A stretch of 64,000 nucleotides of DNA from contig JAGVXV010000010.1 of the NCBI GenBank assembly GCA_018303625.1, forward strand, positions 13,411 to 77,410, given 5' to 3'. The notes beneath the pieces are model-generated. The model searched no databases and had not been told where the DNA came from. It worked only from the letters and a program-made list of their open reading frames with translations. Numbering within the stretch: the first letter of the stretch is position 1; each line of letters begins with the position of its first letter. Below are positions 12,078-44,490 of this stretch, one piece after another. Source of the DNA: Candidatus Woesearchaeota archaeon (GTDB taxonomy: Archaea > Nanobdellota > Nanobdellia > Woesearchaeales > GW2011-AR4). Both the position numbers and the translations under genes were made by a program.

Positions 12078-12171
12078 GGTGGCCGTAGTTTAATGGTAGA
12101 ATAAGCGGCTGTGGATTGCTTTGTTTGCAAACAGAGCCCGCTTGGAGTGGGTTCGATTCCCACCGGCTGCC
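12078..12171 (+). tRNA. tRNA-His (GTG) with about 22-nt intron in anticodon loop; G-1 encoded
   Basis: Acceptor GTGGCCG/CGGCTGC, an extra 5' G-1 opposite discriminator C73 (a His identity element), U8A9, D-arm GTTT/GAAT, and anticodon stem AGCGG/CCGCT with loop CTGTGG|intron|. The T-arm is GTGGG-TTCGATT-CCCAC. Confidence 0.7.
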
Positions 12172-12258
12172 CTTTTTTATATAAAATGGCGGGTTCGTTT
12201 CAGCTTTGGTGATTTTTATTTTTTTCCGCAAGCTTTTTAAATACCCCCATTATCCTTA

Positions 12259-23267: not shown

Positions 23268-24494
23268 TTAGCTGAATTTACAGCAGTAGATATCATAACC
23301 GACACCTGCCGCCCATCCCCATGCTTCATTATGGCCGCGCATGTATTCATCTTCTGCGCACATAGCCCGTGATCCAATCTGTCCATAAACAATGCGGCAA
23401 TTATTGGAAGGGCCGCCACTGTCAACATTATCAGCAAATCCTGCTGGTATGCCTGAAATCTCGCCCCATGAAGTGCCATCTTTTACATAAGCAGGCACGG
23501 TAGGGTCGCTTTCAGAAGTAATTCCCATCTGGTCGCCGTCGCTAAGCCCAGCAGGCACGCTTGTCAGCAATGACCAAGGTATTGAGCCTACCTGTAAGAC
23601 TCCATTCTGGAAATACCAGTCCCAATTATTGTCAAGATTGTTATAAACGCCTGAATAATCAGGATGAACCATAAATGTCCCGTAATTAGTGCCTCCGCTT
23701 TTGAAGTTTATCCCGCTCCATCCGTTTTTTGAGCCGTCAATTGTCAAAGCGCCATAATTGCTGGTGGAGCCAGAGCCGAATATGCTTCCTGAAAGCTTTA
23801 TGTTTCCAGCAACATCAAGCTTTTGCGTTGGAGCTGTTGTCCCGATGCCGACGTTGCCTGTAGGAAAAACAACCCTATTATTGCTCCCCCCATCAGCATA
23901 AACTCCAAGATATTCCGCCGCAATACCATTATTCGCGACAGTCAGGCTAAACGGGTGATTGGAGTTATAGAGGGCTTGCAAGGTCGTGTAGTAATTGGCT
24001 GGATCTGAATTTGTTTCCAATCTTAATTGCGCTGAGTTTGATTTAACCGTGAGGGGATTACTTGGACTCGCAGTCCCAATCCCGACATTTCTGCTTGCAT
24101 CAATTGTAAGCGCCCTTCCAACTCCCGTTCTGTCAATGTAAAAATACCCTGAAGAGTCCCTTCCCATGCCCCACAGATTTGTATTCCCTGAATAAAAGTC
24201 AATTGCAGCCCAGCCCGTTCCAACGCCCTTTATTGCCAAAGCTGTAGAACTAGCAGGATTTCCAATTGTAGCAACACCTCCTACTAAGCTTAAAGTTTCT
24301 GCTTCATCTATTATCTTATTATTATTCTCATCAACGCTTGTGATGTCAGTATCTGATTTTGCAACCTGCTGCAACGGATGCCATGATTTTGTTGTGTCTA
24401 CAACGGCGTTTGCCCCCAATACAAGAAGGATTAATGCCAAGCCCAATAATGGAATATAGAATAATCTTTTATTGGAATCTGCCTTAACCTCCAT
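23268..24494 (-). CDS. Secreted/surface protein with tail-fiber-like Gly-rich repeats and Cys-rich C-terminus
   Basis: An N-terminal TM/signal peptide ('LFYIPLLGLALILLVLGANA'). Repeated motifs 'NVGIGTASPSNPLTV' and 'GNVGIGTTAPTQKLDVAGNIKLSG'. The C-terminus carries 5 Cys ('NNCRIV...MCAEDEY...YCCKFS'). The ORF-track start at 24575 is an alternative. Confidence 0.5.
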   Translation of the reverse strand: MEVKADSNKRLFYIPLLGLALILLVLGANAVVDTTKSWHPLQQVAKSDTDITSVDENNNKIIDEAETLSLVGGVATIGNPASSTALAIKGVGTGWAAIDFYSGNTNLWGMGRDSSGYFYIDRTGVGRALTIDASRNVGIGTASPSNPLTVKSNSAQLRLETNSDPANYYTTLQALYNSNHPFSLTVANNGIAAEYLGVYADGGSNNRVVFPTGNVGIGTTAPTQKLDVAGNIKLSGSIFGSGSTSNYGALTIDGSKNGWSGINFKSGGTNYGTFMVHPDYSGVYNNLDNNWDWYFQNGVLQVGSIPWSLLTSVPAGLSDGDQMGITSESDPTVPAYVKDGTSWGEISGIPAGFADNVDSGGPSNNCRIVYGQIGSRAMCAEDEYMRGHNEAWGWAAGVGYDIYCCKFS

Positions 24495-24649
24495 TTTGCC
24501 TCTTTTTGAATTTATGCAGTTATTACTCTTATTATTGTTTATATTTTTTTCTATTTTATTTTCTATTATACCCAACTGAAAAAGATATTAGTGCGGATAA
24601 AAGCGTACAAAACAGAAATATTTATTAACTAAACATACTCTGGTTTCAC

Positions 24650-31501: not shown

Positions 31502-34108
31502 TTATTGCCTTAAATCTTTTTTTATAAAATCATAAATCTGAGGGAACTTTCCAATATCAAGTAGCTGTTCATGTAAAACTTTAAGGCTGGAACAGCTGCC
31601 ATTCACATAAAAGTTTTCTGCATACGGCAATTCTGCATTTGCCCTTGTCACAATTCCGTCGCCATCTTCGCCGCCAGTGTTGCATCCTGTTCCGACAACC
31701 ACATATAATTTTGCACTTTTTGGGGTTTTCGACGGGTCATTTAGCTTTTTTATGAAGATGCTGTCTTTAGCCATGTCGCCACACTCCTTATTTTCACCCA
31801 ATATGGGGCAAAAACCGCTTACAGCTCCGGAAATGCCTTTGTTAGGCGTCCCAAACATTATCAGCTTGTGGACGCTTTGTTCCCCGAATATCTGCATATA
31901 GCTTCTTGCCACAAGACCTCCCATGGAATTAGAGAAGATTATCACTTTTTCCCTTCCTGTCCTGAACTTCAGAAGGTCTACAAGCTCTTTTAGCCTTAAA
32001 GCGTATGTTTCTATATTTTCACTTTTTTGCTGGGACACAACATAGCCCCCAATATCATAATAGCTTACAAGATAATAGCTGCCCTTAACGGAAATCGGCT
32101 TTGAGGACAAGCCCCATTCTCCCCTGTTTACTTCAGAATAGTTGGAAACAGGGGTTATTGTCCCGGCGCTTAAATAGCCGTCTTCCTCAAGCCTTGATAT
32201 TAATTTGTTGAAAGCGTCCAAGGAATAATCCGGAGAATTGTCGCTGTTCAATGCGTGGCCATGAATGAAAAGTATAGGGTACAAGGCCGGGTCTTTTCTG
32301 CAGGATTCCTCCTGGCAGCATGGCCTGCATTCCCCAAAAATACAGCATACGGGGTAATTATCCGACAGAGATACGTCAATTCTCGAGCTGAAGTTTTTCT
32401 TTTCAGGGATTGGAACCTTGCCAATGCTGGTTCTGTTCCCGTAGTATTCCGAAAGATTTAATTCCGGGGTTATGGCGCAGTAATCATTATAGTATTTTAT
32501 TGACTGATTTGTCAGGTTCAGGCTTATCAATGATAAAATCTCGCTTTCTGAAAATTCCCCGTAGTCTGAATCCTCTATCAAAGGCGTTTCATTGTAAGCC
32601 GAAAGCATCCCAAGAAGCATATTCAGGGAAAAATTCTGGTTTTGGCTTCCCGGGCTCAGGCTTTTTATTTCATTATAATGCCTGTTTTTTATCATGCCGA
32701 TTTTTTTATTTTTTATTTTCTCTGCTATGGCAATAACTTCCCTCATGTTTACGTAATTTTTCATCAGGTTGCCTGATATGTTATTTTCAATTGATTGCAG
32801 TCCTTTTATTTCATTGAAAGAGCTGCAAAATGAAGCTATCTTTCCGTCGTCGACATCAAAGAATTCATCTTTTATGGAAGAAAGGTTTCTCCTATCGAGG
32901 CATATTCCCTTAATATCGCAAAGAATATCCTCTTCAAGGGCTGAGTAATAAAATCCGGCAGTATATGCTTCTATAAATCTGTCTTTTGATCTAGCTGTTA
33001 TCCCGCTGAATGATTTTTCGGCTTCGTTGATGCTCTTTTCAACATAGCTGTAGTTGGAAAATGTGTTTTGCCTTATTTCATTTTTTATCTTTTCAACTGC
33101 CCTTAAAGCCGAATTATGCTCCTCAAGGATTTTTCCCGAGCCGGGCCTTAGGCCGAATAACAGGGTTTGGTTCAGTTCCCTCAGATTGGCCTCTATTTCA
33201 TCAGCCTCCTCTGCCAAGGTATTGTGCATCTCAAGTACAGACTGCATCCTGCTGCTGACGCTGCCTAGTTCTTCCGATATTTCCTGGAGCCTTGCTTCGT
33301 AGCCCTGGCCGTAAAGCTCGGAAAGGTATGGGTAATTCTGGCTCGACCATACTCTCCTAAGATTTTCTGTTTCCAGCACAATGCTGCTGTATTTCTGGTT
33401 CAGGATATCTTTTTCCCTGCTTATCTCGTTGAGGTTTATATTGAATGCCAATTCAAAAAACTGGCCATTAAGCTCCTGAATCCCTATATCAATTTCTGAA
33501 ATTCTCTTAAGCACTTTTTCCAGGTCTTCCTTCAGGCTGCTTTTCAAAAACCTCTCATATGCCGACAGGTCATAATTTAATGTGACAAAGGATGCTTTTT
33601 GCCTCTTTAACTCGTCTGTCAGGCAATACCACGTCCTTATATTATTGCAGGCTACACTAAACCTGTATATTTTCTGGCCGCTTCCAACGGAATCTATTGA
33701 CAGGTTATAGCCTTTTGAAAACCTTTTCTGGGTGCCTGAGCCTACAGAATAGCCCTCTTCAATAAGTCTTGATGAGGATATGTCATAAAACTCGTAGCTG
33801 CAGCGGCTGTCGCAAAAAAAGCTGTTTTTCACTTCCACATTGAATGTAACGCCGGGTGTTTCATTATAAAGTACGCTCAATGAGATGTCATTGGGATTGA
33901 GGCTTATTGAAAGGTCCTCTGTTATCAAAAAATGCAGATTCAGCCACAGCCTATAGCCGCCGAACAATGCAAATATGGCAAGAGCTATGACAACGGCTAT
34001 AACGGCCTTTTTGTGCTTGCCAAGAAAATCCTTCATATTACTTAGCTTATTTTTTGAGGTTTTCTCTTTCTTTGGGCTGTTTTCTTCTGTTTCTTCTTTT
34101 TCCGGCAT
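31502..34108 (-). CDS. Large membrane-anchored extracellular protein with C-terminal alpha/beta-hydrolase (PGAP1/lipase-like) domain
   Basis: 868 aa. The N-terminus has a single TM ('AVIAVVIALAIFALFGGY'). A long coiled-coil/Asn-rich middle region has many N-x-S/T sites. The C-terminal roughly 280 aa carry 'ILFIHGHALNSD' and a nucleophile elbow 'IIFSNSMGGLVARSY' (GxSxG). Confidence 0.55.
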   Translation of the reverse strand: MPEKEETEENSPKKEKTSKNKLSNMKDFLGKHKKAVIAVVIALAIFALFGGYRLWLNLHFLITEDLSISLNPNDISLSVLYNETPGVTFNVEVKNSFFCDSRCSYEFYDISSSRLIEEGYSVGSGTQKRFSKGYNLSIDSVGSGQKIYRFSVACNNIRTWYCLTDELKRQKASFVTLNYDLSAYERFLKSSLKEDLEKVLKRISEIDIGIQELNGQFFELAFNINLNEISREKDILNQKYSSIVLETENLRRVWSSQNYPYLSELYGQGYEARLQEISEELGSVSSRMQSVLEMHNTLAEEADEIEANLRELNQTLLFGLRPGSGKILEEHNSALRAVEKIKNEIRQNTFSNYSYVEKSINEAEKSFSGITARSKDRFIEAYTAGFYYSALEEDILCDIKGICLDRRNLSSIKDEFFDVDDGKIASFCSSFNEIKGLQSIENNISGNLMKNYVNMREVIAIAEKIKNKKIGMIKNRHYNEIKSLSPGSQNQNFSLNMLLGMLSAYNETPLIEDSDYGEFSESEILSLISLNLTNQSIKYYNDYCAITPELNLSEYYGNRTSIGKVPIPEKKNFSSRIDVSLSDNYPVCCIFGECRPCCQEESCRKDPALYPILFIHGHALNSDNSPDYSLDAFNKLISRLEEDGYLSAGTITPVSNYSEVNRGEWGLSSKPISVKGSYYLVSYYDIGGYVVSQQKSENIETYALRLKELVDLLKFRTGREKVIIFSNSMGGLVARSYMQIFGEQSVHKLIMFGTPNKGISGAVSGFCPILGENKECGDMAKDSIFIKKLNDPSKTPKSAKLYVVVGTGCNTGGEDGDGIVTRANAELPYAENFYVNGSCSSLKVLHEQLLDIGKFPQIYDFIKKDLRQ

Positions 34109-37158: not shown

Positions 37159-38214
37159 ATGGTAGAGGTAGGAAGAATAGTCAGAGATTTGGAAACTGTG
37201 AGAGAGCATTTACTTAGAACTGGAGCTAGGCCAGAAGTTGTTGACGCATTTAACAGAACTTTTCTACTTGACACTTTAAACACAGATGTCCTATCCAGAT
37301 TTGCATTTTATGGGCTACTGAGACGAACTATAGAAAATTATATTGAAGGGAATTTAATAATAGAACGCCAGGATAGAAGAAAACTGAATGGTGGCGATAG
37401 AGTCAATCTTAGGGGTAAAGCCAAAGAAGATAGAAGAGCCGAAAGAATAGAGGTTACAAGTGACATGATAGATGTAGCTATGTTTGATTTAGGCCGTTTT
37501 AAATTTTATAATGACGAATTTGGGGAATTAGTTGGAGATTTGCTTCTAGCAGTTGTAGGCGGAATGATTAGCAAGAACCTAAGGCCGTATGACGCCACCA
37601 CAGCACCAGTGGATTATGAATCTCTTTTGAGAAACATAGGCAGTGGGGTTGCAAGTAGGGAAAAAGGTGATGAATATAGGGCAATGATAGTCGGGACAAG
37701 ACAGCATAAGACAATAATTAACCGTATTCTTAAAAATGTCAGAAAGGAAGCCATAGAAGAGGCTTATAAACAAGTTAAAGGAAATCCAGAATTGATTAAT
37801 TTGTTTAGAGGTGATTCTTACGCAGAAAAAGAAAGTAACCTAGAGAAGTTTTACAGAGCACAAAAGACTATGCCAATAGTGTTAAGGGTAGGGTATGCCA
37901 TACTAAAAGACATTGAAAAAGAAGTTGAAAGAACTGAGCGCGCCAGAGACCCTGAGAACCTAGCTACCCGCTTGATAGTGGCAAGCACGGATACACAAGA
38001 AGCTGTTAAGATGAGCGGTGATTTGGGAAAAGTTTATTCTTATCAAGATTTAAAGAATGGAAAAATTGGGGGTAAAACGACAAGCCACATGCCTCCAAAT
38101 TTAGTTGAGATGGTTCAAAGGTATGGTGGTGAAGTTTTTCACCGTAGAGTTCTTGATGAAATTCGAGCCTCTCATCCTGACGCTTACAGATTGTTAACAA
38201 GAAGAACTGGTTGA
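37159..38214 (+). CDS. hypothetical protein (351 aa), Arg-rich, atypical codon usage
   Basis: A long, clean ORF adjacent to tRNA-Arg. Its codons are strongly AT3-biased (aga, tta, gta, aca) in contrast to core genes. No enzymatic motif is recognised. It ends with a Walker-A-like 'GKIGGKTTS' near the C-terminus. Confidence 0.4.
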   Translation: MVEVGRIVRDLETVREHLLRTGARPEVVDAFNRTFLLDTLNTDVLSRFAFYGLLRRTIENYIEGNLIIERQDRRKLNGGDRVNLRGKAKEDRRAERIEVTSDMIDVAMFDLGRFKFYNDEFGELVGDLLLAVVGGMISKNLRPYDATTAPVDYESLLRNIGSGVASREKGDEYRAMIVGTRQHKTIINRILKNVRKEAIEEAYKQVKGNPELINLFRGDSYAEKESNLEKFYRAQKTMPIVLRVGYAILKDIEKEVERTERARDPENLATRLIVASTDTQEAVKMSGDLGKVYSYQDLKNGKIGGKTTSHMPPNLVEMVQRYGGEVFHRRVLDEIRASHPDAYRLLTRRTG

Positions 38215-39896: not shown

Positions 39897-41237
39897 TTAA
39901 GAAGTTGGGTCTGATACTCTACCTATAAACAGAATTGTATTATTTTCACGTTCTTGAATTATGAAGATAAAAGGATGGTCTGCACGAAAAATTGGTGTTG
40001 GTGGTGGGATCGATATAATTCCAATAACAACTGCTGTTGCAGCTGCTGCTTCTGTGCCTTCCTCATTCACATCAACAAATGCCTGATGGATAACATCGCT
40101 AATAACAAGGTCTTTTTTTCCATCAATTCCAGAAAAATCCGCTTCTAGTGGATCAAATGATGATAAGATTCCCATTTCTTTAAGATTTTTAGAGAGAAAA
40201 TATTTACTATCAAAAGTAAACCGAGGTATAAAAACATCAACGTTTTGTTCTTTCAACTTGGTAACCCATTCAGTAAATTTAACTGTGGAAAGAGAGCTTT
40301 CAACTTTTTCTAAGTCATCATTTTTTGGAAGTAGGATTATCATCGATAAATTGTTTCCTTCATACAGCAATTCAAGAATCTGCGATTCATCTGTTTCTGC
40401 ATAATTGAATCTTGACTCTGTATACCTCATAATTGGCACTATTACAGTTTTTTCATTATTCACCTTAAATTCTTCATCCTTGGTTTCTTCTTTATCAAAT
40501 TGTACTAGCCAGTTTGCTTTAAAGTAAATTGCATTTGTAAGTACCAATCTTGTCGCGGCATCAAGAACGCCTACTGGAATTAAATCCTTAATCTTATCAT
40601 TAGTTTTATCTTCTACCCATTTATTTATTGTCTGCCGAGCTTCTTCAGTCGCTTTTATGAAATCAACAAGATTAGCGCTTGCATCATAATATTTTTGCAA
40701 TACATTAACATATTCATCTAAAATTCCAAAATCTTTTTGTACCCAAAATGCATTTGCAGTGCTAAGATTATATTTACTGTCCTTGCTATTTATTTTACTG
40801 TTAAGTTCTACATATGACAATCTAAGCAAGCCATAATCCTCTGGAAAATGCAATGTTCTTGCAATCTCATTTGCAGTCTCTCCACGTGCTCCTTCATATG
40901 TCATTGCAAGTGCTGCAGTAATGCTCCATGGAGAGAAAAAGATATTCCCTTCTTCCTCACTTAATTTTGAATAAAGATCAAAAGCAAATTGATTATTAGA
41001 GTCTGAAATGCCACTAAAATTTACTGTAATTGCTTTGTTATCTTTCTTTGCGGGTAATTCATGCTCTATAGATTGATTTTTAGCAGCGGATTCACGTTTC
41101 TCTAGAGGAGCAATTTCTTCATCTTTTTCTGGCAAATTATTAAATATCGCCAAATTAAGAACTACTAGAATACTAACTATAACGATAACTATCCATAAAA
41201 TAGTTAAAATCGTTTTCTTATCCATTTCCTCCAACAT
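39897..41237 (-). CDS. Serpin (serine protease inhibitor), membrane-anchored/secreted
   Basis: An N-terminal TM is followed by a serpin fold. It has the hinge 'NEEGTEAAAATAVVIGIISIPPP', the canonical EEGTEAAAAT inhibitory hinge, and the C-terminal 'FRADHPFIFIIQE...ILFIGRV' serpin signature. Codon usage is AT3-rich. Confidence 0.85.
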   Translation of the reverse strand: MLEEMDKKTILTILWIVIVIVSILVVLNLAIFNNLPEKDEEIAPLEKRESAAKNQSIEHELPAKKDNKAITVNFSGISDSNNQFAFDLYSKLSEEEGNIFFSPWSITAALAMTYEGARGETANEIARTLHFPEDYGLLRLSYVELNSKINSKDSKYNLSTANAFWVQKDFGILDEYVNVLQKYYDASANLVDFIKATEEARQTINKWVEDKTNDKIKDLIPVGVLDAATRLVLTNAIYFKANWLVQFDKEETKDEEFKVNNEKTVIVPIMRYTESRFNYAETDESQILELLYEGNNLSMIILLPKNDDLEKVESSLSTVKFTEWVTKLKEQNVDVFIPRFTFDSKYFLSKNLKEMGILSSFDPLEADFSGIDGKKDLVISDVIHQAFVDVNEEGTEAAAATAVVIGIISIPPPTPIFRADHPFIFIIQERENNTILFIGRVSDPTS

Positions 41238-41343: not shown

Positions 41344-43236
41344 TTAATTAACATCAACAACAAACTCGCGGCTTATTTCCTCAACGCCGTCGCTTACAGT
41401 AACCTTGATTTCCTTTTTGCCTTTTGACGCAAATGTCCTTTTGTGTATCGCAGTTGCATTGTGCTTGTCAAAAAGCCCGAAATCCCAGAGATAAGACAAA
41501 GCATCATTATCAAAATCCCTTGCCGCAACAAACAATGTTACCGGTTCGTTCACTTTAGCTGACAAATCCGTGCTGGAATTGACTATTTCAGGCGCTATAT
41601 TTTTATTGAAAACAGTAATGTTAAGCTCCTGCTCAGCACTATCCTGTCCATCGCTTGCAACAAACCTGACTTTTACGCTTTCTTTTTCTTTGCCTTTGAC
41701 AAAGGAAAAATCCGGCTTGAAAGTAAAAATGCTGCCTTCCAATTCAGCATTTTCCGGCAGATTTTCAGCAGAGAATCCTATTATATCATTGTCAGGATCT
41801 GTTGCCATTAATTCCATTCTAAGAGTTTTGTTTTCAGTTATTTCTGCATTTTTTAATGGCTCAAAGGCTGGAGCCCTGTTGACATTCTCAACACTGACAG
41901 TAACAAATTCCGAAGCAGTGTAAAACCCGTCAGTGCCCGTGACTTTTACGATATAAATGCCTGCATCATCAAAATTTGTCTTATAAGTATTTTTTGCCAT
42001 CCATCCTGAATATGCAAATGAAACCCTGTCGTTGTCAGGGTCGTTGTAGCGCGGCTCTATTTTAACTTCCTCATTTTCATCGATAGTGATTGGTGCAATA
42101 GGCTCCAAGGTAAAAGGCCTGTTTGCGTCCCTTACAGTTATTTTTACGTCTTTTTCCGCTTCATTTCCATTGCTTTCCGCCATAAACTTGATATTTACGC
42201 TTTTGCTTAGCAAATGAAACTTGTCGGCGATATAATCAACAAGATTTTCCTTTTTTACAAAATTGAAATCAGGCTTCCATCTGAAAGTATTTCCATCCAG
42301 TACAGCCCCATCCGGCATGTTCTGCGCAGAAAAGATTATGTCATCATTATCAGGGTCCTGAACATTCAGCTCTATGGCTGCTTCTTCATTTTCATTTATT
42401 GCAATATCCTTTAAGTCAACAAAAAAAGGAGGCCTGTCATTGTTGCTTACAGTCACTTTGACCTGCTTGCTTCCTGAAAATCCTTTTCCATCTGCTTTTA
42501 TCGTTACCTTATAGGTGCCTGCATCATCATAGCTCGTCTGCCATTTGTTGTTCTGCCCGATTGGCTCTGATATAGTGTAAATTAGGCCGTATTTTTTAAA
42601 ATCAGGAAGGTTTAAGCTTGCAATTTCTGTTTCCCGGACTGCAATATCCTGTATAGAATCCAGAACATTTTCCATGCTGACATCATTTACCTCTACAATC
42701 CATTCGTTGCTTACACTATGGAGTTTATCTGAGACAACAATCTTGACATTATGCGTTCCGGCATCTTCGTAATCAGTTAAGTAATTTATAGTCTTGTCAT
42801 TGCTCACCAAAACATCATCAAGAAACCATTCATAGGCTAGAGTGTCTTTATTCAGGTCAGAGGCTGAAACATCAAAGCTTATGCTTTCTCCCTCATTAAT
42901 TGCCACTTTGTTTTCTTTCGGGGCAAAGCTTTCAATTGCCGGCTTTTCCTCCTTTTTACTGACAACCAGCAAAACCTCCTGGGAACTGCTCAATTCTCCA
43001 TCGCTTACAGTAATTGTGACTTTATATTCGCCTGCATCACCATAAGTTGTCTGCCACTCGCCATTTTCATTTAAAGGCTCGCTGTATGAATAAACAAGAT
43101 TCTGCGCATCAGGGTCTGTGGCTTTCGGCTGCAGGCTTACCAGTCCGGTTTCATTATAGGCAAAGGTTGTTATGCCGGAAGAGATATTAGCAACTAATAA
43201 TAAAACTAGCAATAGCAAAATTATTTTTTCCCCCAT
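41344..43236 (-). CDS. Secreted protein with about 6 PKD-like Ig-fold repeats
   Basis: A signal peptide is followed by repeats of roughly 90 aa, each with 'Y..DAG.Y.V.V.V.D' PKD signatures (for example 'TTYGDAGEYKVTITVSDGELSS', 'TDYEDAGTHNVKIVVSDKLHS'). Confidence 0.6.
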   Translation of the reverse strand: MGEKIILLLLVLLLVANISSGITTFAYNETGLVSLQPKATDPDAQNLVYSYSEPLNENGEWQTTYGDAGEYKVTITVSDGELSSSQEVLLVVSKKEEKPAIESFAPKENKVAINEGESISFDVSASDLNKDTLAYEWFLDDVLVSNDKTINYLTDYEDAGTHNVKIVVSDKLHSVSNEWIVEVNDVSMENVLDSIQDIAVRETEIASLNLPDFKKYGLIYTISEPIGQNNKWQTSYDDAGTYKVTIKADGKGFSGSKQVKVTVSNNDRPPFFVDLKDIAINENEEAAIELNVQDPDNDDIIFSAQNMPDGAVLDGNTFRWKPDFNFVKKENLVDYIADKFHLLSKSVNIKFMAESNGNEAEKDVKITVRDANRPFTLEPIAPITIDENEEVKIEPRYNDPDNDRVSFAYSGWMAKNTYKTNFDDAGIYIVKVTGTDGFYTASEFVTVSVENVNRAPAFEPLKNAEITENKTLRMELMATDPDNDIIGFSAENLPENAELEGSIFTFKPDFSFVKGKEKESVKVRFVASDGQDSAEQELNITVFNKNIAPEIVNSSTDLSAKVNEPVTLFVAARDFDNDALSYLWDFGLFDKHNATAIHKRTFASKGKKEIKVTVSDGVEEISREFVVDVN

Positions 43237-43264: not shown

Positions 43265-44278
43265 TTATTCCTGCACTATGTCTATTATCTGCGGAGGCCT
43301 GTTTACATTCTCTACTATGACGGCAACTTCCTGGCTTGCTTCATCAGTGCCGTCTGATGCCGTTACTTTTACAGTATACGTTCCTGAATCATCATAGGTT
43401 GTCTCCCAAACGCCGTCATTTCCTACAGGATCAGATATTGTAAATGCAATTTCATCTCCGTCCAAATCTGCCGCTTTAGGCCCTATGGTTACTGTTTCTG
43501 TCTCTTTAACTTTTATAGCTGGGATTTCCTCCAGTACCGGCTTCCTGTTTACATTATTTACAGTGACAGACCATAAGTTTTCTGTCGATAGCTTGCCATC
43601 TGAAACAGTGACTTTTACTGTGTGGCTTCCGGCATCATCATAAGTGATTTCATATTTGAAGTAATCGCTGCCTGAAACCTCACTGCCGTCCAGTTTCCAT
43701 TCATAGCTTATTTTATCCTTGTTTAAATCAACGGCTTTAACGTTAAATTCAATTGCTTTTGTTTCACTTGTGATTGCGGTCTTTTCATGAGGCATAAAGC
43801 TCTCGATTACAGGCGCTTCTTCCTTTTTATTTACAATTATCAAAACTTCTTTTGAGCTTGTCAGTTCGCCGTCTGAAACAGTCACAGTAACGGTATATTC
43901 GCCAGCATCGCCGTAAGTTGTCTTCCATTCGCCTTTTTCGTTTAACGGGCTGCTGAATGCAAACTCTAATTCATCCTTATCAGGGTCCTGGGCTTTAGGA
44001 GTTAAGCTTACAATGTCTGTTTCCTGCACTATAATAACAGTCGCTTCCCCTACTTCTTCCCTGACTTCCTTCACTTCCTCTTTTTCAGCTTCCTTTTCTA
44101 CAGGAGCCTCTTCTTTTATTAGTTCTCCTATGGTTATGTTTTCCTCAGGAATCTTGACTACCTCCCCAACAGGAGCCGGCGGCGCATATAGTGTATTGTA
44201 GACGTCGCAGGCTGACAAGAAAACAGCGAATATAACAAGAGTTGCAATGAGCGCTTTTAATTTCATAATACCCCTCAT
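43265..44278 (-). CDS. Secreted/lipobox-anchored protein with 3 PKD-like repeats (paralog of the upstream gene)
   Basis: A signal peptide ends 'FLSAC' (lipobox-like). The repeats 'TTYGDAGEYTVTVTVSDGELTS', 'ITYDDAGSHTVKVTVSDGKLST' and 'TTYDDSGTYTVKVTASDGTDEA' are closely related to the 41344-43236 repeats. Confidence 0.6.
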   Translation of the reverse strand: MRGIMKLKALIATLVIFAVFLSACDVYNTLYAPPAPVGEVVKIPEENITIGELIKEEAPVEKEAEKEEVKEVREEVGEATVIIVQETDIVSLTPKAQDPDKDELEFAFSSPLNEKGEWKTTYGDAGEYTVTVTVSDGELTSSKEVLIIVNKKEEAPVIESFMPHEKTAITSETKAIEFNVKAVDLNKDKISYEWKLDGSEVSGSDYFKYEITYDDAGSHTVKVTVSDGKLSTENLWSVTVNNVNRKPVLEEIPAIKVKETETVTIGPKAADLDGDEIAFTISDPVGNDGVWETTYDDSGTYTVKVTASDGTDEASQEVAVIVENVNRPPQIIDIVQE

Positions 44279-44362: not shown

Positions 44363-44490
44363 TGGGCCTGCCAGGATTTGAACCTGGGACCATTCTCGGC
44401 TTATTGGCTCTCGATGTCTAACAGCTGGTTATCAGTTTCGCCGCCTCTTCTGGAGACTCGAGCATTCTAACCAGACTGAACTACAGGCCC
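44363..44490 (-). tRNA. tRNA, 128 nt, with a roughly 36-nt anticodon-loop intron and extra nucleotides in the variable region; anticodon probably CTC (Glu) but uncertain
   Basis: Minus strand. Acceptor GGGCCTG/CAGGCCC with A73. An intact D-arm GTTC-AGTCTGGTTA-GAAT. Anticodon stem CTCGA/TCGAG enclosing 43 nt. T-arm CCAGG-TTCAAAT-CCTGG preceded by 22 nt. Confidence 0.55.

Follow-up and report, generated by a model that had tools for sequence, protein, structure and literature searches.

The window analyzed here is a 64,000-nucleotide stretch of a Candidatus Woesearchaeota contig (JAGVXV010000010.1, assembly GCA_018303625.1, positions 13,411 to 77,410), and the gene in question, on its minus strand, encodes a putative secreted fiber protein with repeated modules and a cysteine-bearing C-terminal tip. 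A reading made from the letters and their open reading frames (ORFs), here referred to as the sequence-only reading, had described the product as a membrane-anchored protein with phage tail fiber-like repeats. The true start of the ORF is likely ATG 24494 (M28), which gives a protein of 408 amino acids; an AGAGG Shine-Dalgarno-like element is located at 24499-24503, four bases 5' of this ATG, and is followed further upstream by an A/T-rich stretch. An identical 435-amino-acid protein is encoded on 23 groundwater metagenome contigs, and the GC content of the gene is uniform and the same as that of its surroundings. Counted from M28, the protein is rich in Gly (12.7%), Ser (9.8%), Ala (8.3%) and Asn (8.3%), with Thr at 7.1%, and the label "Gly/Thr-rich" that it had received does not hold. 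The cysteines of the 435-amino-acid ORF are at positions 20, 393, 406, 431 and 432; the supposed five-cysteine C-terminal module thus has four, the fifth (C20) lying 5' of the probable start. A basic segment opens the N terminus and leads into a hydrophobic one of 20 to 22 residues that closes in ANA/VV, with the Kyte-Doolittle maximum at amino acids 37 to 59. This n-region, h-region and small-x-small pattern is common to all relatives that have the same N-terminal domain (N-domain). The hydrophobic stretch noted earlier is real, but a cleavable Sec signal peptide looks as plausible here as a membrane signal-anchor.

Both repeats quoted in the sequence-only reading are present in the ORF (NVGIGTASPSNPLTV at amino acid 163 and (G)NVGIGTTAPTQKLDV at amino acids 240/241), and their likeness to viral beta-helical fiber repeats was confirmed by several searches. 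Pfam and NCBIfam scans assigned the protein to no family and to no glycosidase or lyase, and the classification therefore stands on PHROGs, PDB and profile searches. Two tail fiber families were matched in PHROGs, phrog_9942 at 5e-9 and phrog_18345 at 7e-7. Among PDB sequences, the single fiber sequence matched Bd2133 (8OND; 3.4e-6) and also Bd2439, both of which are mosaic adhesive trimer (MAT) fibers of Bdellovibrio. A family profile, A1, built from 44 query-anchored homolog segments, matched five PDB sequences, all of them Bdellovibrio MAT fibers, with E values of 3.5e-19 for Bd2133, 1.8e-9 for Bd1334 (3.8e-5 for the 8ON4 construct), 2.8e-9 for Bd3182 and 4.8e-8 for Bd2439. Comparisons among the internal modules of the protein gave z scores of 4.4 to 6.1 against shuffles, and a second internal repeat, W..[LI]..[VI]PAG[LF].D, was found at amino acids 334 and 370, spaced 36 amino acids apart (z = 5.9 against shuffles). 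Given the profile E value of 3.5e-19, the two PHROGs matches and these z scores, the quoted motifs are not due to chance.

The family motif, sgnVGIGttsPsqkLdv, aligns on Bd3182 chain residues 26 to 39 (RVGVGTTAPTSALH) and 122 to 135 (FFGINTAAPAYNIH), which correspond to R656-H669 and F752-H765 in a construct starting near residue 631. These two segments of Bd3182 have been described as "capping loops" located on the edges of the trimeric beta-helix, and the motif is also present in MyRF (Caulton et al. 2024, PMC10769870). Since it aligns on these loops, the repeat motif first noticed at this locus corresponds to the capping loop of a MAT/S74-type intertwined beta-helix.

Homologs of the fiber modules are also encoded by viruses. 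In tblastn searches, amino acids 238 to 315 were 39 to 44% identical to the long tail fiber distal subunit of Vibrio phage EniLVp02 and to gpS' of the Mu-like Shewanella phage MSO-5, and four IMG/VR contigs encode proteins that are 34 to 38% identical to amino acids 61 to 343. The three of these contigs that we examined (L089-L091) are tailed phages with genes for a tail tube, a baseplate hub, a tape measure and fiber assembly; the tail genes adjoin the fiber genes, whose products are 1,330 to 2,407 amino acids long. As these are genuine tailed phages, viral homologs of the fiber modules do exist. The nearest full-length relatives of the protein are, however, cellular.

The division of the protein into parts follows from BLAST mapping of 120 homologs and is given in Table 1.

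Table 1. Fiber gene, its predicted parts and the exchanged DNA segment (positions are those of the window; aa, amino acids of the 435-aa ORF)
Feature	Position	Strand	Description
Maximal ORF	23268..24575	minus	435 aa, TTG start; gene-finder call, same as the feature of the sequence-only reading
Probable true coding sequence	23268..24494	minus	408 aa from ATG 24494 (M28); relatives open with a short basic, then a hydrophobic segment
Signal peptide or signal-anchor	24405..24494	minus	aa 28-57, MEVKADSNKR-LFYIPLLGLALILLVLGANA, possible cleavage ANA/VV; from hydropathy and an AlphaFold2 (AF2) helix with a predicted local distance difference test score (pLDDT) of ~80
Family-specific N-terminal segment	24294..24404	minus	aa 58-94, SWHPLQQV...IIDEAETLS; presumed cell-proximal docking part
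Beta-helix module 1	24045..24293	minus	aa 95-177; aligned by profile with the beta-helix modules of Bd2133 and Bd1334
Capping loop 1	24045-24092	minus	aa 162-177, RNVGIGTASPSNPLTV, closes module 1
Beta-helix module 2	23811..24044	minus	aa 178-255; phmmer match to 8ond_A over aa 144-274
Capping loop 2	23811-23858	minus	aa 240-255, GNVGIGTTAPTQKLDV, closes module 2
Module 3	23583..23810	minus	aa 256-331; resembles distal tail fiber subunit of phages
Two 36-aa stalk repeats	23412..23582	minus	aa 332-388; W..[LI]..[VI]PAG[LF].D...ESDPTV...KDG
C-terminal tip	23271..23411	minus	47 aa (389-435), C393, C406, C431, C432; presumed distal cap or binding knob
Recombination cassette	24080..24413	minus	~330 nucleotides, aa 55-165; 90-100% DNA identity to P0003 and P0004, 150 nucleotides at 100%

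The N-terminal segment at amino acids 58 to 94 had no match in Pfam, NCBIfam or PDB and is kept only in rare relatives (P0003, P0004, P0009, P0020, P0024, P0031, P0036 and P0123-P0125). The modules that follow are more widely distributed: a module 65% identical to module 2 is present in P0010, P0013 and P0015, in which it is placed between an N terminus of the type seen in P0002 and a Peptidase_S74 end, and module 3 is 54 to 59% identical to P0019, P0021 and P0023. The 36-amino-acid stalk repeat occurs in tandem arrays of 2 to 5 copies in many bacterial homologs, such as P0014 and P0016, and matched nothing in PDB, Pfam or NCBIfam. By sequence, the 47-amino-acid, four-cysteine tip is effectively an orphan, as an exhaustive phmmer search against 1.84 billion representatives returned only P0002, which has a near-identical tip, and P0121, a spurious ORF with Arg-rich repeats. 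In the alignment, the tip looks like the end of P0009 (C-P-P-G-Y-F-M..G...Y-N-I-Q-C-C-R), but this likeness had no statistical support and is not claimed here. The size of the family is uncertain because homolog retrieval was word-index based and hence limiting. Two further homology searches with the N-domain yielded only fragments and one archaeal contig (L095), and a genome scan with the N-domain alignment gave zero confirmed relatives.

Comparison with the closest homologs revealed a mosaic. The cassette listed in Table 1 is flanked on its 5' side (the signal peptide) and on its 3' side by DNA that has background identity to P0003 and P0004, with the rest unalignable. Its 3' breakpoint coincides with the sequence coding for the first capping loop, and the IPAGFADG repeat and the second capping loop are again marked by short islands of DNA identity. 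This pattern is the signature of a recent homologous exchange in which conserved motifs served as junctions. P0003 and P0004 have the N-domain of the fiber in common, after which they diverge completely and end in unrelated tips. Since P0004 (L088 322-1467) and P0003 (L087 118-747, 850-2046) are encoded on overlapping contigs from one sample, they are tandem paralogs. The reverse arrangement is seen in P0002, which has another N terminus but is 91% identical over amino acids 160 to 412 and carries the same tip. The C-terminal ends of the relatives comprise Peptidase_S74, a Shufflon_N-like module, LamG, Gly_rich_2 or TSP1 repeats. Judging from these alignments, paralogs with a common base and chimeric, variable tips, a feature of the MAT type, are present. 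Two sources of variation other than exchange between paralogs were considered and rejected. The gene is not a target of a diversity-generating retroelement, as the window contains neither a template repeat nor a further copy of the gene or of any portion of it and the protein is invariant on the 23 contigs, and no inversion repeats, as expected of a shufflon, were found around it.

Some features of the relatives' loci are of note. Between P0004 and P0003 lies an ORF for a 209-amino-acid, Cys-rich protein with a lipobox-like LNGC, and the regions upstream of the two genes are repeats of each other with 92% identity. The contig that encodes P0015 (L093) has a GC content of 0.41, equal to that of the window, and is 74% identical in nucleotide sequence to module 2 of the window over 235 nucleotides; directly upstream of P0015, at 212-2062, it encodes a 616-amino-acid, Cys-rich protein that has no Pfam match and no similarity to the fibers. 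At 10001-12031 of L095, an archaeal contig (MCM and L37ae) from a frameshift-ridden long-read assembly, the same N-domain is followed by one GNVGIG module and then by thrombospondin type 1 (TSP_1) and other Cys-rich repeats, which are unusual for an archaeon.

The mature part of the fiber (23271-24404) contains no N-x-S/T sequon, compared with 5.5 expected from its composition (P about 0.002). Sequons are likewise absent from P0003, P0004, P0009, P0020 and P0024, although the counts for P0003 and P0004 are not independent of that for the fiber because the N-domain is common to them. No such depletion is seen in other exported proteins of the window: a PKD protein has 6 sequons versus 6.7 expected, a serpin has 5 versus 3.8, and an 868-amino-acid hydrolase, with 15 versus 8.8, is enriched, the opposite of the fiber. 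The absence would fit an exported protein to which N-glycosylation might do harm, for instance one that depends on trimer packing or on a bare binding face. That an exported archaeal protein family avoids sequons completely is unusual, and this signature is easily checked.

The window is archaeal. It holds an archaeal RNase P RNA and an archaeal signal recognition particle (SRP) RNA, the latter directly downstream of the fiber gene on the same strand. Its isoleucyl-tRNA synthetase (IleRS) is 57 to 69% identical to proteins from groundwater metagenome-assembled genomes (MAGs), mostly labeled Candidatus Woesearchaeota, with three of the best matches bearing automated "uncultured Methanosarcinales" labels; the source is therefore most likely a Woesearchaeota-like DPANN archaeon, in line with the small-genome, possibly host-associated archaeon of the sequence-only reading. 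The neighbors of the fiber gene encode IleRS, NAD kinase (NADK), a class IV aminotransferase, an MBL-fold protein, a signal-peptide peptidase (SPP), a nitroreductase, FtsZ and ribosomal proteins. Farther away are genes for GcpE, PGK, an H+-PPase, an A-type ATPase, lipid synthesis, two PKD/Big_9 surface proteins and the serpin. The 64-kb window yielded no viral, integrase or pilus genes. No fiber homolog was present in any of the 80 IleRS loci, and since the syntenic region of related Woesearchaeota MAGs is without the gene, it is an accessory one.

On the basis of the homology of its modules to MAT and phage fibers, the mosaic with its breakpoint, the secretion-type N terminus and the chromosomal, nonviral setting, we favor the view that the gene probably encodes a short (about 380 amino acids when mature) secreted subunit of a MAT-like, NS74-type trimeric beta-helical surface fiber or adhesin. 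The precursor would be exported via Sec by its N-terminal signal, which would then be cleaved at ANA/VV or retained as an anchor. Three chains would intertwine to form three stacked beta-helix modules, a VGIGT..P...L capping loop bounding each of them, and the family-specific N-domain would take a cell-proximal position and dock the fiber to the envelope. The two stalk repeats and a putatively disulfide-bonded four-Cys knob would make up the distal end and set the binding specificity. Scaled from Bd2133, in which 370 amino acids span 142 to 150 Å (PMC10769870), the fiber would be roughly 15 nm long. Paralogs in the archaeon or in close relatives would carry the same N-cassette with unrelated tips, new combinations arising by homologous recombination at the capping-loop motif. 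In a DPANN archaeon, such a fiber may serve in attachment to the host cell or to another surface. Of the two roles put forward earlier, an adhesin or a domesticated viral fiber, the former is favored because of the putative secretion signal, the Cys-rich and presumably extracellular tip and the purely housekeeping neighbors; recent domestication has no specific support because the modules are widespread among cellular fiber proteins.

Several points weigh against the view of a MAT-like fiber. We infer the trimerization, the surface location and retention, the disulfide bonding and the binding function with its target, and that this archaeon has a host at all is assumed from its lineage. In an NCBIfam scan at E values of ≤10, the protein did not match NF053851 (Bdello_MAT_N); at the position of the ~130-amino-acid, beta-rich MAT N-terminal domain, it has a different, lineage-specific one. 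The characterized MATs are more than twice as large, and without a known anchoring partner a cleaved fiber could simply be released. The structure prediction suggested by the sequence-only reading was uninformative for the monomer: AF2 models of the whole protein reached a pLDDT of 61 and a predicted template modeling (pTM) score of 0.33, and those of amino acids 318 to 435 reached a pLDDT of 56, with the tip below 50 to 62. Such low confidence is as expected for a single chain of an intertwined trimer. The best Foldseek matches of the whole-protein model were MAT beta-helix domains, but none had an E value of <1e-3. The window contains only one copy of the fiber gene, P0003 and P0004 cannot be placed in one genome with it, and related Woesearchaeota MAGs retain the IleRS-NADK...SPP order without the gene, so that no conserved operon lends support.

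Alternatively, the protein could be a structural envelope spike for cohesion, spacing or protection that has no specific ligand, its variable tips then being an immune-like escape from viruses that use it as a receptor. Archaeal surface proteins are common viral receptors, and a secreted, fibrous, accessory protein with mosaic variation is compatible with this role. We nevertheless consider it rather unlikely, as every characterized relative, be it a MAT fiber, a phage fiber or a PilV-type module, is a binding device, and receptor-binding proteins have just this architecture, in which the base is conserved and the distal tip varies. The modules themselves raise the prospect of a tailspike-like enzyme, which would bind and cleave host or environmental polysaccharide in a beta-helix cleft, as do the K1F endosialidase and the P22 tailspike, and help to breach or graze the host envelope. 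The modules are indeed homologous to the S74-type fibers Bd3182, K1F and T5, all of which have a cleft at their surface, and close relatives end in Peptidase_S74. Here, however, the Pfam scan found no Peptidase_S74 (PF13884, the SDxxxK chaperone/protease) in the fiber, which is present in its relative P0010 at 1.1e-12; no glycosidase or lyase family was matched, the modules are short, and the closest solved relative, Bd2133, is without such a cleft (PMC10769870). An enzymatic role is therefore unlikely.

The sharing of modules with phage tail fiber families and phage proteins might also mean that the gene encodes the tail fiber of an integrated or defective provirus, or one acquired so recently from a virus that it still serves it. 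The neighboring genes, for the SRP RNA, the aminotransferase, the MBL-fold protein, FtsZ and ribosomal proteins, and the absence of viral and integrase genes from the 64-kb window make this very unlikely. A Sec-type N terminus and a Cys-rich tip, moreover, fit extracytoplasmic folding, whereas virion fibers assemble in the cytoplasm, and a foreign insert is not indicated by a GC content that equals that of the surroundings. Equally improbable is a PilV/shufflon-like tip adhesin on a type IV pilus-like filament, even though relatives fuse the same fiber modules to a Shufflon_N-like module (P0003 and P0016) or to a prepilin N-methylation motif (P0066). The fiber itself has no class III (prepilin) signal; in NKR-LFYIPLL, the hydrophobic stretch is preceded by KR-LFY instead of [KR]-G/A. 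It also has no match to N_methyl (PF07963) or Shufflon_N (PF04917), and neither pilus genes nor inversion repeats accompany it.

Among known systems, the MAT-like fiber proposed here is closest to the NS74 subgroup of MATs (Bd2133, PDB accession number 8OND; Bd1334; Bd2439), which has homologous beta-helix modules and the same capping-loop motif. MAT fibers and the archaeal protein have their parts in the same order (signal peptide, putative in the archaeal protein, conserved beta-rich N-domain, beta-helix repeats and variable C-terminal tip), form multiparalog families with tip swapping and, if the archaeon has a host as presumed, belong to organisms that must attach to other cells. Unlike Bdellovibrio, the archaeon has no outer membrane, and its mature fiber has about 380 amino acids versus about 1,000; 36-amino-acid stalk repeats adjoin its tip, and its adhesive function is presumptive. 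The tip is an orphan module of 47 amino acids with four cysteines, whereas those of MATs are beta-sandwich, TNF-like or C-type lectin domains. Module sharing and mosaicism by module exchange are also found in the S74 phage fibers (K1F endosialidase, 3GW6; T5 L-shaped fiber, 4UW8) and the Mu-type S/S' fibers. These differ from the archaeal protein, which carries a putative secretion signal and a tip of the disulfide type, lacks S74 and is encoded on a cellular chromosome, away from any virion genes. In the PilV shufflon adhesins of IncI plasmid thin pili (PF04917), too, the N-terminal part is constant and the C-terminal specificity segments are alternatives to one another, and the paralog P0003 carries a Shufflon_N-like module. 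The archaeal fiber, however, has no prepilin signal, Shufflon_N, recombinase or inverted repeats, and its variation would come from recombination between paralogs and not from site-specific inversion. As to DPANN archaea, pectin-lyase-like beta-helix proteins of Nanobdella aerobiophila have been proposed as host interaction surface proteins (bioRxiv 10.1101/2023.10.27.564410), and cryo-electron tomography of a DPANN coculture revealed tail fiber-like "antennae" of unidentified nature on host AS-7 cells (PMC11329633). Both are, like the archaeal fiber, candidates for extracellular beta-helical or fiber-like structures at the DPANN-host interface. The Nanobdella proteins are large, heavily N-glycosylated, single-chain parallel beta-helices, whereas the fiber described here is short and sequon free and is predicted to be an intertwined subunit of the MAT type. 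A bacterial metagenomic homolog, P0014, is also worth mentioning: its amino acids 19 to 89 match NF053851 at 1.8e-11, below the cutoff (44 bits versus 60), and it carries both the 36-amino-acid repeats and GNVGIGT modules, which suggests that MAT-type architectures occur widely beyond Bdellovibrio.

The means by which uncultured DPANN archaea locate and retain their hosts have yet to be established, and we know of no host recognition protein in Woesearchaeota. A bolder and more doubtful extension of the MAT-like view is that Woesearchaeota-like DPANN archaea might recognize hosts by a repertoire of miniature trimeric fibers akin to phage receptor-binding proteins, in which a constant, lineage-specific N-terminal docking cassette is recombined at the capping-loop motif with unrelated, disulfide-rich tips and which are free of sequons so that the intertwined trimer and the binding face stay bare. 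If true, host specificity in this uncultured lineage would for the first time become accessible at the molecular level, and prey recognition by Bdellovibrio would have its counterpart in archaea. As a probable adhesion fiber with an exchangeable tip, the protein is a candidate host recognition molecule and not a new kind of system; were it merely a generic surface spike, the finding would be an ordinary one. In either case, the pool of MAT and tail fiber modules is extended from phages and bacteria to archaeal chromosomes. We found no paper describing MAT-like fibers in DPANN archaea in the literature searched, which is not proof of absence. The family lends itself to testing, as it is small enough for expression and offers a homology-based structural model, a defined variable tip and a visible recombination mechanism.

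Some other genes of the window deserve mention. Two adjacent genes on the minus strand (41344-43236 and 43265-44278) encode further candidate surface adhesins, both of them secreted proteins containing domains of the PKD, Big_9 and cadherin-like types. At 39897-41237 (minus) lies the gene for the serpin, which is full length (Pfam Serpin, 2.6e-123) and has an N-terminal hydrophobic segment. The 868-amino-acid protein mentioned above (31502-34108, minus) has a weak C-terminal match to alpha/beta-hydrolases (palmitoyl thioesterase/PGAP1-like). A GcpE/IspG enzyme (754-1809, minus; 4.6e-150), which belongs to the bacterial-type methylerythritol phosphate isoprenoid pathway, is encoded on this archaeal contig. 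Unusual for an archaeon is a 351-amino-acid protein (37159-38214, plus) with a partial GGDEF match (amino acids 100 to 146, 1.5e-8); it may instead be some other palm-domain cyclase or polymerase. Finally, two tRNA genes are overly long, one of 94 nucleotides (12079-12172, plus) and one of 128 nucleotides (44363-44490, minus), the latter identified by Rfam only. tRNA introns are common in archaea, and both genes presumably contain them.

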